In this document: in pieces, positions 7,266 to 51,538 of the stretch
How positions within the stretch are numbered: the first letter of the stretch is position 1
How the letters are laid out: every line of letters begins with the position of its first letter
From: Patescibacteria group bacterium
GTDB taxonomy: Bacteria > Patescibacteriota > Patescibacteriia > Patescibacteriales > UBA12465
Direction of reading: 5' to 3'
Assembly: GCA_041671365.1 (NCBI GenBank)
Contig: JBAZBP010000001.1
Span: 182,459 to 233,996, forward strand
DNA length: 51,538 nt
Position numbers and translations under genes: made by a program
Notes under the pieces: model-generated
The model's database searches: none
What the model was told of the DNA's origin: nothing
What the model saw: only the letters and a program-made list of their open reading frames with translations

Positions 7266-7826
7266 ATGAAAAAAATAATTAATTTACATCAAAATAGCCT
7301 TGAGTATACGCTTAAATTCAGTCGTCGTGCGCGCCGGATGCGTCTGACGATTTATCATGACGGCAATCTTATTGTAACCGCCCCGCACCGAATGAGTGAA
7401 AAAACGATTGAACAATTTATTCTCGAAAAATCCCGGTGGATTATAGATAAGCTGGCCTATTTTAAAAACCGGCCAAAGCCAATTTTTATAAAAGATAGAA
7501 AAAAAGAGTATGAGGAGTATAGAAACCAAGCCCTGATTTTCGTACAGAAAAGAATTGAGTATTTTAATCAATTTTATGGTTTTAGATTTAAACAAATAAA
7601 AATAAAAAATCAGAAAACCCGTTGGGGGAGCTGTTCTAAGAAAGGAAATTTAAATTTTAATTATAAAATATTTTTACTCCCCGAAAAATTAGCCGATTAT
7701 GTTATTGTTCATGAGCTTTGTCATTTAAAAGAATTAAATCATGCCCAGAAATTCTGGGACTTGGTCGTCAGAACTGTACCCGATTATTGGCAGATTAAAA
7801 GGGAGCTTAGAAAGGTGGGTTTATGA
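7266..7826 (+). CDS. YgjP-like (DUF45/M48-related) zinc metallohydrolase
   Basis: HELCHLKELNH zinc-binding motif near the C-terminus and RWGSCS upstream, typical of the YgjP/SprT-like family. Confidence 0.75.
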   Translation: MKKIINLHQNSLEYTLKFSRRARRMRLTIYHDGNLIVTAPHRMSEKTIEQFILEKSRWIIDKLAYFKNRPKPIFIKDRKKEYEEYRNQALIFVQKRIEYFNQFYGFRFKQIKIKNQKTRWGSCSKKGNLNFNYKIFLLPEKLADYVIVHELCHLKELNHAQKFWDLVVRTVPDYWQIKRELRKVGL

Positions 7827-7985
7827 GGGGAATATCGCCTCGCGGCGCTTAGTCGCGCCGCTCGTTGCCCCTGACGGACCCGCTAAACGCTCGCCAACTC
7901 ACGTTTATCGTCGCTCGATTACTCGGATTCGCTCCGCTCATCCTCGTATCTCGCTCGCCGTCTGTTCGATCCCCCTAGTTGCGAA
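7826..7985 (-). repeat. GC-rich island downstream of tRNA-Glu, bounded by tRNA T-arm copies
   Basis: Sharp GC shift versus AT-rich flanks. 7964-7978 GTTCGATCCCCCTAG is an inverted copy of tRNA-Glu 8036-8050. 7826-7837 AGGGGAATATCG is a direct copy of 8038-8047. Contains GAGCGA/GGCGAGCG motifs. Confidence 0.6.
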
Positions 7986-7992
7986 TATTAAT

Positions 7993-8024
7993 AAAAATAC
8001 TCCAACAAAGTTAGAGTATTTTTA
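7993..8024. terminator. Bidirectional intrinsic terminator after tRNA-Glu
   Basis: Stem AATACTC (7996-8002) / GAGTATT (8014-8020), flanked by an A-run and a T-run. Confidence 0.55.
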
Positions 8025-8029
8025 TTACG

Positions 8030-8101
8030 TAGTCCCTAGGGGAATCGAACCCCTGTTACCAGGATGAGAACCTGGCGTCCTAACCGTTAGACGAAGGGAC
8101 C
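8030..8101 (-). tRNA. tRNA-Glu (anticodon CUC)
   Basis: The reverse complement GGTCCCTTCGTCTAACGGTTAGGACGCCAGGTTCTCATCCTGG...GGGGTTCGATTCCCCTAGGGACTA folds as a cloverleaf. Anticodon loop is TT-CTC-AT. Position 1-72 is a G-U wobble. Confidence 0.85.
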
Positions 8102-34232: not shown

Positions 34233-34323
34233 CAGAAGAAAACCGATTTATTAGATCGGTTTTTCCGTTATGATTGTTCGCCTTCTTCCTTTATGGGTGT
34301 TTCCATACTATACTGTTAGAACT

Positions 34324-35631
34324 ATGAAACAAAAAGAAGCTTTAGCAATATTGGAGGCGGGGCATAATATTCTTTTAACTGGTCCGGCGGGCAGCGGGAA
34401 GACTTTTTTATTAAATCAATACATCGGCCATTTAAAAAAGAAGAACATCGGAGTGGCCATAACCGCCTCAACCGGTATCGCGGCGACTCATCTAGGCGGA
34501 CGAACTATACATTCCTGGGCCGGAATCGGAATTAAGGATCGGTTAAGTTCGAGAGATATTCAGGCACTTACAAAAAAATCTTATTTGAAAAAGCAATTTG
34601 AAAAAACTGCAGTTTTAGTGATTGATGAAATATCTATGTTGCCCGCCCATCGTTTAGATTTGATTGATTCAGTTTGCCAAGCTTTTAAAAAAAATTCTTT
34701 GCCATTTGGCGGCCTTCAGATTATTATGTCCGGAGATTTTTTTCAGCTTCCGCCGATTTCTTCCGGCGGAGTCGAAGTGGAGTTTGTTTATAAATCAAAC
34801 GTTTGGTCGGAAATGGATTTGCGCGTTTGTTATTTGGACGAACAGCATCGTCAGAATGATAAAAAGATGATTAGCATTTTAAAAAGTTTAAGAGAGGATG
34901 CTGTTGATGCAGAAACTATTAAGTTACTGAAAAGCCGAATGAATCAAAAAATTAATGACGAAGTTAAGCCGATTAGATTATTTACGCACAATATTGATGT
35001 TGATGTTATTAACGATGTTGAACTTAAAAAGATTATCGCTCCCGAATTTGTTTATCGTATGACCAGCGAGGGTGAAAAGAGATTAGTGGAATCTCTAAAG
35101 AAAAATTGCTTGGTTCCGGAGAAGTTGACCTTAAAGAAAGGAGCGCAGGTCATGTTTGTTAAAAATAAGTTTAAGGAAGAAAAAGCTGTATATGTTAATG
35201 GCAGCATGGGGATAGTTATAGGTTTTGAGGAAAATAATTTTCCCCTGGTTCGTTTAAAAACCGGCGAAGAAATTTTAGTGACGCCGGATAGCTGGACAAT
35301 TGATGATGAGCAAAGAATTTTAGCTAAAATAAATCAGCTTCCGCTTCGTTTGGCTTGGGCCATAACCGTCCATAAAAGTCAGGGCATGACGCTTCAATCG
35401 GCTGAGATTGATTTAAGTCGTTCCTTTGGATTCGGAATGGGTTATGTGGCTTTATCTCGATTAACCAGTTTAGAGGGTTTATACCTGTTGGGAATTAATG
35501 ATATGGCTTACAAACTCGACCCTAGAATTTTTTCTTATAATCAAGAACTCTTAATTCTTTCTCAGCAGGCTAAAGATGATATTAGGCCTAAGGTTTATAA
35601 AAAACAGGGAGAATTGTTGACAGATTTGTAG
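34324..35631 (+). CDS. PIF1/RecD-like superfamily 1 DNA helicase
   Basis: Start set at MKQKEAL. Walker A GPAGSGKTF, Walker B VLVIDEISM, GDFFQLPPI, and C-terminal VHKSQGMT. Confidence 0.75.
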   Translation: MKQKEALAILEAGHNILLTGPAGSGKTFLLNQYIGHLKKKNIGVAITASTGIAATHLGGRTIHSWAGIGIKDRLSSRDIQALTKKSYLKKQFEKTAVLVIDEISMLPAHRLDLIDSVCQAFKKNSLPFGGLQIIMSGDFFQLPPISSGGVEVEFVYKSNVWSEMDLRVCYLDEQHRQNDKKMISILKSLREDAVDAETIKLLKSRMNQKINDEVKPIRLFTHNIDVDVINDVELKKIIAPEFVYRMTSEGEKRLVESLKKNCLVPEKLTLKKGAQVMFVKNKFKEEKAVYVNGSMGIVIGFEENNFPLVRLKTGEEILVTPDSWTIDDEQRILAKINQLPLRLAWAITVHKSQGMTLQSAEIDLSRSFGFGMGYVALSRLTSLEGLYLLGINDMAYKLDPRIFSYNQELLILSQQAKDDIRPKVYKKQGELLTDL

Positions 35632-51084: not shown

Positions 51085-51110
51085 AAATTTCGACCGCGGT
51101 CGAAATTTTT
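51085..51110 (+). terminator. Intrinsic terminator
   Basis: Palindrome AAATTTCGACCGCGGTCGAAATTT followed by a T-run. Confidence 0.6.
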
Positions 51111-51181
51111 GCGGGATTCGTATAGTGGTAGTACAGGAGTCTCCAAAACTTCTAGCGGGGGTTCGATTCCCTCATCCCGTG
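51111..51181 (+). tRNA. tRNA-Trp (anticodon CCA)
   Basis: GCGGGATTCGTATAGTGGTAGTACAGGAGTCTCCAAAACTTCTAGCGGGGGTTCGATTCCCTCATCCCGTG. Anticodon loop is CT-CCA-AA. G73 discriminator. Position 1-72 is a G-U wobble. Confidence 0.8.
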
Positions 51182-51538
51182 CTTAAACAAAAATACAGAG
51201 CGTAGTTCTGTATTTTTGTTTATGTTTGGAAGGGAATCGGACAGGATTGAAGTGAGCTAGATATTTGCCAGCAGGCAAATATCGCAGTGAACGATCGACA
51301 AGCCCGCCCGGGGCGGGCTTGTCGCAATCCCGGACAACGAATGAGCGAGCGACGGCGAGCGAATGAGGCGGAAATTCCCTCATCCCGTGCTTAAACAAAA
51401 ATACAGAGCGTAGTTCTGTATTTTTGTTTATGTTTGGAAGGGAATCGGACAGGATTGAAGTGAGCTAGATATTTGCCAGCAGGCAAATATCGCAGTGAAC
51501 GATCGACAAGCCCGCCCGGGGCGGGCTTGTCGCAATCC
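51166..51538 (+). repeat. Perfect tandem repeat, 208-bp period, starting inside the tRNA-Trp 3' end and running off the window
   Basis: 51166-51330 is identical to 51374-51538 (165 nt compared by eye, no mismatch seen). Each unit holds 17 nt of tRNA 3' end, a terminator hairpin and a GC-rich structured core. Confidence 0.85.
51186..51220. terminator. Bidirectional intrinsic terminator after tRNA-Trp (repeated at 51394-51428)
   Basis: Stem AAAAATACAGA / TCTGTATTTTT with loop GCGTAGT. Confidence 0.65.

Follow-up and report, generated by a model that had tools for sequence, protein, structure and literature searches.

What is the GC-rich DNA that stands directly behind the tRNA-Trp gene of a Patescibacteria group bacterium, and how did it come to be there twice? 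The locus closes a 51,538-nt stretch of contig JBAZBP010000001.1 (assembly GCA_041671365.1, positions 182,459 to 233,996 of the forward strand), which is referred to as the window and whose own coordinates are used throughout. A first-pass annotation made from the letters had described a perfectly duplicated 208-bp unit that starts inside the tRNA gene and contains a terminator and a three-stem core, and had considered integration at a tRNA gene, a structured RNA or an assembly artefact as its explanation. With slightly better than even confidence, we hold that the locus belongs to an undescribed small family of folded non-coding elements of ~166 nt, which stand right after the tRNA terminator in Patescibacteria, are most simply RNA and were probably inserted, and that the duplication arose via 17-mers. 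Both the element and its fold can be taken as real with confidence; its structure, conservation and patchy distribution as well as the composite make-up of the repeated unit were observed or computed directly.

The repeated unit behind tRNA-Trp

Direct-repeat analysis showed that positions 51166-51330 and 51374-51538 are identical over 165/165 nt with a period of 208; the repeat starts at 51166, within the T loop of tRNA-Trp, and a perfect 165-nt repeat cannot have arisen by chance. The 17-mer ATTCCCTCATCCCGTGC is found both at 51166-51182, where it forms the 3' end of tRNA-Trp (copy 1), and at 51374-51390, where it forms the end of the GC-rich island (copy 2). The GC content of the window is 38%, and just two of its non-coding stretches reach ~66–69%, one in this island and the other at 7827-7975 behind tRNA-Glu; the island has 57–59% GC in a genome of 38%. 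Folding of the 208-bp unit in comparison with shuffled sequences gave z = -7.25 on the plus strand and z = -8.49 on the minus strand. The direct repeat with its spacing of 208 and all the other sequence features of the first-pass annotation (17-mer, hairpin, inverted motif, P1, P2, and P3) were recovered where it had placed them, and the locus comprises the following parts:

51111-51182, plus strand: tRNA-Trp (anticodon CCA), found with ARAGORN and the Rfam tRNA model (58.5 bits), identical to the tRNA-Trp of the island-less relative L003
51184-51222, plus strand: AT-rich terminator-type hairpin of tRNA-Trp with a 16-bp perfect stem, TAAACAAAAATACAGA/TCTGTATTTTTGTTTA, an A tract before it and a T tract after it
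51225-51390, plus strand: island copy 1 (166 nt), which folds, has orthologues in contigs L011, L012, and L024, and scores 200.5 bits with covariance model R1
51231-51237 and 51374-51380, plus strand: outer helix P0 of island copy 1
51244-51249 and 51325-51330, plus strand: P1 of island copy 1, GGATTG/CAATCC
51260-51269 and 51274-51283, plus strand: P2 of island copy 1, perfect 10 bp with loop AGCA
51296-51308 and 51312-51324, plus strand: P3 of island copy 1, a perfect hairpin of 13-14 bp
51331-51373, plus strand: conserved purine-rich strand (~44 nt) of island copy 1, after P1
51374-51390, plus strand: 3' end of the island, i.e., the 17-mer, copy 2 of the short repeat
51392-51430, plus strand: second, identical terminator hairpin, found as inverted repeat and as part of the direct repeat
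51433-51538, plus strand: island copy 2, which ends at the window edge after the P1 3' strand, is 100% identical to copy 1 and scores 122.1 bits with R1 (model positions 1-106)

P1, P2, and P3 are predicted to form a three-way junction enclosed by the outer helix P0, the strands of which are an inverted and a direct copy of the T-loop/T-stem 3' half of a tRNA. At its 3' end the island repeats the acceptor 3' strand of tRNA-Trp. At 51231-51242, the inverted T-loop-like motif AGGGAATCGGAC agrees with GTTCGATTCCCT in 11/12 positions, and the island carries AGGGAAT and ATTCCCT as terminal inverted repeats. Taken together, such an element would act as a folded single strand.

The repeated unit does not coincide with the island. 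In the relatives L003 and L004, the tRNA-Trp equals that of the window at 72/72 positions and is followed by a homologous hairpin (AAAAATACAGAGC...CTCTGTATTTTTGTT), then by an AT-rich spacer and an unrelated gene, without the GC-rich island, and the similarity between L003 and the window stops directly past the hairpin. Because these island-less relatives have a homologous hairpin, the terminator belongs to the tRNA-Trp locus itself, and the additional DNA in the window starts just past it, near 51223. The 208-bp unit is composite, consisting of 17 nt of tRNA, the native terminator and the ~166-nt island that ends in the same 17-mer. The AT-rich hairpins are overlooked by a simple terminator scan, as they contain fewer than three G-C pairs and fall below its G-C rule. 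The earlier view of the unit as a mini integrative element bracketed by att copies was not sustained, since its internal terminator is native and its 17-mer intrinsic to the island (see below); as a practical warning, not every tRNA 3' fragment beside a tRNA gene is an att scar.

On the other side of the tRNA gene, a perfect 24-nt palindrome (AAATTTCGACCG/CGGTCGAAATTT) lies at 51085-51108, between a Dfx_N-like small gene and tRNA-Trp, and may serve the upstream operon as its terminator or be a site of protein binding.

Orthologues and covariation of the island

A pattern of the two end motifs of the islands behind tRNA-Trp and tRNA-Glu was scanned over the JGI metagenomes and retrieved contigs L011 and L012, and L024, which comes from a third sample, was obtained by a look-up anchored on a protein. 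These are three independent JGI assemblies of one organism with a single-copy island, in which tRNA-Trp is followed by a terminator, one 166-nt island (TTTGG to GTGC) ending in ATTCCCTCATCCCGTGC, a second terminator, and a flavodoxin-like gene. The gene order rpmG, AI-2E, rubrerythrin, Dfx_N, tRNA-Trp is common to the window and all three contigs. The L011 lineage is distant from the window organism, as their AI-2E proteins are just 60% identical, compared with 71-74% for island-less relatives. Between the window and L011, identity amounts to about 69% in tRNA-Trp and 72% in the rubrerythrin DNA, to 92% (111/121) in the island outside P2 and P3, and to 48% in the P2 and P3 stems. In these two stems, 10 pairs carry changes in both partners and none in just one, and three are broken. 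This degree of covariation was reached by 0/500 shuffles, and sliding the partners by 1-3 columns left 0-2 double changes. As MAFFT misplaces P3 in the alignment of the window with L011 (two compensating 1-nt indels), the alignment was corrected by hand with N as placeholder. The joining regions are conserved (AAGUGAGCUAG, the loop AGCA, CGCAGYGAACG, and the purine-rich strand) and the helices are freely rewritten, which argues for selection on a folded single strand. The three-stem core proposed earlier is thus present with P1, P2, and P3, in a conserved fold with covarying stems, and the idea of a structured, tRNA-linked element has been substantiated as a genuine, conserved, non-coding one without a Rfam family.

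The orthologues also bear on how the island relates to its tRNA. L011 and the related contig L014 have a tRNA-Trp with an unusual T arm (GCAGG-GGCGGCA-CCTGC), and the island of L011 still ends in the canonical ATTCCCTCATCCCGTGC. Since L011 carries both the 17-mer and the inverted motif despite this different T arm, both are intrinsic to the island and not local copies. Of the inverted T-arm copy described in the first-pass annotation, the 11/12 match therefore stands and the local tRNA as its source does not.

Further relatives were sought with the open reading frame (ORF) on the antisense strand of the island in 1.84 billion representative proteins. Two hits, P0304 (66 aa, from a 109,912-nt ENA contig) and P0307 (130 aa, from a 1,704-nt ENA contig), are translated homologues of the island. 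When they were back-translated onto the frame of L011, all P1, P2, and P3 pairs could be formed, the sole determined mismatch being the A.G also found in L011, and new double changes came to light, including two in P1 of P0307 (G-C to A-U). P0307 runs into the antisense of a tRNA with anticodon GNA, which would be a third kind of partner tRNA. Two other hits were discarded: P0305, a repeat-domain protein with a spurious match, and P0306, in which hand back-translation showed that the P2 region cannot pair and whose repeats inflate the score. The latter (match E = 7e-6) is a called ORF of 349 aa with three 91-aa tandem repeats (273 nt), located on a 90,259-nt NCBI contig of a GC-rich organism, and is probably unrelated to the island.

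Rfam searches, as had been recommended, detected tRNAs only, be it in the window at gathering score, in the region at E ≤ 10, or in L011 and L014, with other matches far below threshold, so that no Rfam family explains the core. The two-motif pattern had one chance match in genome_contigs, whose species representatives do not include the source genome, inside a Bacteroidales gene, five patterns found no match among viral contigs, and blastn found none among phage and plasmid records.

A small RNA from the tRNA-sense strand would be the simplest form of the island, produced by transcription that reads on from the tRNA or starts at an unrecognised promoter, and ending at the next terminator hairpin; its RNA form, strand, movement and action are what we infer from the data above. 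Three hints point to this strand. Read in tRNA sense, all three broken pairs are A.G, and on the opposite strand they are C.U; a P2 extension of 3 bp, predicted outside the model, contains a pair that is G.U in the window and G-C in L011; and in L011 a terminator follows the island on the tRNA-sense strand. The resemblance of the outer helix and acceptor strand to a tRNA hints either that the 3' half of a tRNA is mimicked or that the tRNA gene is recognised as a target. Genomes of the candidate phyla radiation (CPR) are tiny and contain little non-coding DNA, so a conserved, structured element of 166 nt that is kept behind tRNA genes probably does not lie idle. As an RNA, it would represent a new family with tRNA mimicry (T-arm-like closing helix, acceptor 3' strand) and would point to a link with tRNA processing, CCA addition or tRNA-binding proteins; as a mobile element, it would rank among the smallest known and pick tRNA genes by arms that copy their target. 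In either case, it provides a concrete and testable system, for which a covariance model and defined helices are at hand, at a locus that seemingly varies in copy number within one population.

Probable insertion, duplication and rival explanations

The second GC-rich stretch of the window holds a divergent, single-copy island behind tRNA-Glu, arranged as follows:

7823-7975, minus strand: island behind tRNA-Glu, which starts with GGGGGATCGAACAG, ends with GAGGCGATATTCCCCT, and has the same part order as the Trp island
7989-8027, minus strand: AT-rich terminator hairpin of tRNA-Glu, found as a palindromic blast match
8029-8101, minus strand: tRNA-Glu(CTC), found with ARAGORN and Rfam

Both islands share the 12-mer GACGGCGAGCGA and fit the two-motif pattern with the same 148-nt span. 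R1 aligns the Glu island across model positions 7-160 with counterparts of all four helices, i.e., possible equivalents of P0-P3, to which an extra hairpin (GCGGCGC/GCGCCGC) is added. The arms read AGGGAAT/ATTCCCT beside tRNA-Trp, the T arm of which is GATTCCCT, and GGGGGAT/ATTCCCC beside tRNA-Glu (GATTCCCCT); they appear to match the T arm of the type of partner tRNA (Trp, Glu, and probably the one with a GNA anticodon), a match that is not obligatory, as seen in L011. At the Glu copy the direct repeat of the tRNA end is just 8 nt long and no displaced tRNA end was found.

The Glu island also bears what looks like a footprint of insertion. The convergent gene for a YgjP-like (DUF45) metallopeptidase (7266-7826, plus strand) encodes 186 aa, compared with 189 aa in nearly all of 120 homologues. 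Homology with the closest of these (L025, 78% identity) ends at ...TTTATG, where the island starts with AGGGGAAT, and the far end of the island supplies the last codons and the TGA stop, so by this comparison the island would have clipped three codons off the gene. In addition, the gene block around tRNA-Trp was taken from related Patescibacteria, and islands were sought there by model search. The island occurs in 2 of ~10 syntenic lineages, and was not found by this search in ~8 further lineages with the gene block (L003/4, L005/6, L007-10, L026, L013, L014, L015-22), which have tRNA-Trp and the terminator; among them, L014 has the same odd tRNA-Trp as L011. Because of this patchy occurrence in syntenic lineages and the clipped YgjP-like gene, the island probably came by insertion and not by vertical descent, in line with the foreign look that the first-pass annotation had ascribed to the DNA at the tRNA gene. 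No integrase, transposase or nuclease was found among the ~45 ORFs of the window, which are housekeeping genes or of no known role, and the earlier remark that the window holds no recombinase is thereby confirmed.

How the island was duplicated can be accounted for by its own end. The last 17 nt of the tRNA and of the island are identical, and unequal crossing-over or slippage during replication between these 17-mers would therefore duplicate or delete precisely the 17-mer, the native terminator and the island, i.e., the 208-bp unit. We are moderately confident that the duplication arose in this way, and two copies without a single difference are consistent with a recent event. An independent contig bears on the number of units: L001, a Logan contig of SRR18595301, matches the window with 100% identity along 3300 nt and breaks off precisely at 51182, the last base of the tRNA. 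In a k=31 graph simulation, a tandem repeat alone stopped at 51195 and a single unit ran through, and a stop at 51182 was obtained only with a second sequence after the last base of the tRNA. This one contig end suggests that another arrangement, e.g., one with no unit, coexists in the population, and copy number probably varies within it.

Several points weigh against the picture of an inserted, folded RNA duplicated through its 17-mers. P0 and P1 are invariant between the window and L011 and thus uninformative on covariation, full DNA variants of the Trp-type island number only two, and the support from P0304 and P0307 rests on degenerate back-translation. The link between the Trp and Glu islands, which the first-pass annotation had noticed, is real (shared 12-mer, part order) but weak, with E = 0.0036 in nhmmer and E = 0.072 with R1, and the Glu island folds no better than shuffled sequences (z = -1.8). 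It also faces a convergent gene without a terminator behind it, a poor fit to an RNA in tRNA sense. On neither strand did a promoter scan find a consensus promoter for the island, the two strands are not told apart by folding energy, and covariation of this kind would equally be left by a folded strand of DNA. As to the duplication, the end of the array lies beyond the window, so that recombination between 17-mers is deduced from the visible part, and the argument from the contig end assumes that the Logan k=31 graph behaves like the simulation.

The rival that survives best, though we think it doubtful, is a miniature integrative element akin to cis-mobilizable elements (CIMEs), in which the 17-nt tRNA-Trp end would be the att core, an external tyrosine or serine recombinase would insert a 208-bp circle, and accretion would produce the array. 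The perfect 17-nt direct repeats and the head-to-tail order agree with it, as do the 10-nt repeat CATCCCGTGC that flanks terminator and island in L011, the patchy occurrence at one tRNA locus, and the break of the independent contig at the last base of the tRNA, the expected att boundary. However, not all DNA between the repeats is foreign, as L003, with an identical tRNA, has a homologous terminator after it, which would be unexpected if the internal terminator were element-borne. The Glu copy, with its 8 nt shared with the tRNA and no displaced tRNA end, does not fit either, the window holds no recombinase, a DNA circle of 208 bp would be very small, conserved unpaired sequence with freely rewritten stems is unlike att arms, and the phage, plasmid and viral-contig collections gave no match. 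Unequal recombination or slippage between the 17-mers explains the array better than the integrase-driven accretion suggested at first.

It is unlikely that the duplication is an assembly artefact, with one unit in the genome and an assembler that looped at a contig end. Such an origin would account for the perfect identity of the two copies and for a second copy cut by the end of the given sequence, and an assembly cannot reveal copy number. On the other hand, the 17 shared nt are shorter than usual assembler k-mers, and judging by the simulation a loop would need real reads that join the island end, the 17-mer, and the terminator. The source contig is 529,534 nt long, so the end of the window need not be a contig end, and the window stops 60 nt ahead of the expected graph branch point. 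The independent contig from SRR18595301 breaks at this place, which a simple single-unit genome would not cause, and the island itself is confirmed by independent assemblies. Of the artefact raised in the first-pass annotation, what persists is that copy number is unreadable from the assembly; a pure artefact is improbable in view of the 17-nt junction and the independent assemblies of the island.

More speculative, and in our estimate quite improbable, is the idea of a tRNA-homing system that has its non-autonomous core in the island. A folded strand of RNA or DNA would display both T-arm strands, with an inverted copy on the 5' side and a direct copy together with the acceptor strand on the 3' side; taking it as a guide or target mimic, a recombinase from a gene elsewhere would insert the element behind the tRNA gene that matches, and the arms would be rewritten when the partner changes (Trp, Glu, or the tRNA with a GNA anticodon). 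If true, this would be a new and very small nucleic-acid-guided mobile element in bacteria with reduced genomes. Finally, a small protein gene on the strand opposite to the tRNA (an ORF of 55-66 aa from ATGAGGGAAT) can practically be dismissed: four variants (the window, L011, P0304, and P0307) have this ORF open, in two of them gene callers called it, and by hand comparison several differences between the window and L011 in conserved blocks are synonymous, but compensating indels (+1 and -1, 38 nt apart) put the conserved P1 bases (GGATTG) in different frames in the window and L011, which speaks against a gene, P2 and P3 encode unrelated residues with bases that remain complementary, the ORF of the window crosses the terminator hairpin, the Glu copy has a stop after nine codons, no ribosome-binding site was seen by eye, and none of nine ORFs of the window island was present in an exact look-up in a collection of 15 billion proteins.

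The surroundings of these tRNA genes offered some further observations. The gene after tRNA-Trp varies by lineage (L003, L005, L007, L013, L014, L015, L026, and L011) and encodes UPF0182, Fic, a response regulator, an FAD oxidoreductase, an aldose epimerase, NUDIX, LigT, or flavodoxin; the upstream block is conserved, and the 3' side of tRNA-Trp is a hot spot of recombination or insertion. Directly after tRNA-Thr(GGT), the window has a gene for a Pif1-type helicase (34270-35631, plus strand), and the corresponding place is taken by a 243-aa protein of no known family in L003 and by a 331-aa protein in L013. The tRNA-Trp(CCA) with a non-canonical T loop is located at 465-535 in L011 (minus strand), at 2930-3000 in L014 (plus strand), and at about 860-931 in L024 (plus strand). 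It is missed by ARAGORN and scores 42.6-43.6 bits with the Rfam tRNA model. This tRNA (GCAGG-GGCGGCA-CCTGC) lacks T54, psi55, and A58 as well as the GG pair of the D loop, and the contact between D loop and T loop appears to have lost both of its partners jointly. Between the Dfx_N gene and tRNA-Trp, L012 (1055-1759, minus strand), L011 (521-1225, minus strand, split into 84 + 148 aa), and L024 (213-917, plus strand) contain a 234-aa ORF, which enters the tRNA-Trp 5' end by 15 nt and is absent from the close relative L014. Pfam yielded only a weak N-terminal helix-turn-helix for it; its motif LALLYWGEGAK may, by eye, resemble LAGLIDADG, and the ORF may be a homing-endonuclease-type insertion at the same tRNA locus.

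Relation to known systems

Four candidates were rejected. ARAGORN did not report a transfer-messenger RNA or permuted tRNA, and an acceptor 5' strand is missing; a group I intron in the T loop would have a terminator inside it, and L011 has no 5' T-stem; a riboswitch does not suit the Glu copy, which faces a convergent gene; and the size and structure of the unit are wrong for a TIGR or type III antitoxin array.

Small, non-autonomous palindromic repeats are known from several bacteria, such as the Correia/NEMIS elements of Neisseria and the Rickettsia palindromic elements, which resemble miniature inverted-repeat transposable elements (MITEs). The island is like them in being 100-200 nt long and non-coding, in its short terminal inverted repeats, in the ability to overlap a gene end (Glu copy), and in being folded when transcribed. 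Unlike them, it occurs at 1-2 loci in 51 kb (two in the window), its interior is conserved across distant lineages, and its ends mimic the neighbouring tRNA; the inverted ends measure 7-10 bp, but no target-site duplication was seen at the flanks by reading.

Recombination sites or guide RNAs of mobile elements that work as folded single strands include integron attC, CTX-phage attP, and the IS110 bridge RNA, the last of which is located at the non-coding end of an element with a DEDD recombinase gene and has its target and donor guides in two internal loops. By analogy only, the island shares with them that structure is kept over stem sequence, that the sequence of the DNA target (here the T arm) reappears in the base helix, with two bulged bases, and that it occurs in tandem arrays. 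It differs from integron attC and the IS110 bridge RNA by its lack of R boxes, by P2 and P3 being plain hairpins without guide loops, and by the absence of IntI, Xer or DEDD recombinases nearby, with no DEDD recombinase gene beside any copy.

Fragments of tRNA 3' ends beside tRNA genes are a known mark of integration, as attR scars (PMC9897764), and CIMEs, tandem accretion, and elements that integrate into tRNA genes have been reviewed (PMC5704250). Like these, the island stands at a tRNA gene whose 3' end is repeated, is geneless, head-to-tail and patchy. Unlike these, it measures only ~166-208 nt, has the host terminator inside the repeat and a tRNA-like end that is intrinsic and need not match the local tRNA, shows covarying stems with conserved unpaired parts, and has no integrase in the window; the repeat of the tRNA end, 17 nt at tRNA-Trp of the window and 10 nt in L011, is reduced to 8 nt at the Glu copy, which therefore lacks an att-type repeat.

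Orphan structured RNA motifs have been sought in long, GC-rich intergenic regions of AT-rich bacterial genomes (PMC6429828, PMC8632094, PMC8723152). The island has their hallmarks, namely a GC-rich composition, a multi-stem junction, conserved joining regions, covarying helices, and no ORF involved, and its compensatory changes together with conserved unpaired positions are those of a structured RNA, on the basis of few sequences and with a folded DNA strand giving the same result. It stands apart from them in falling outside the Rfam families, in lying always 3' of a tRNA gene, in its patchy occurrence, and in having a closing helix that copies a T arm and an end that repeats the acceptor strand of a tRNA.

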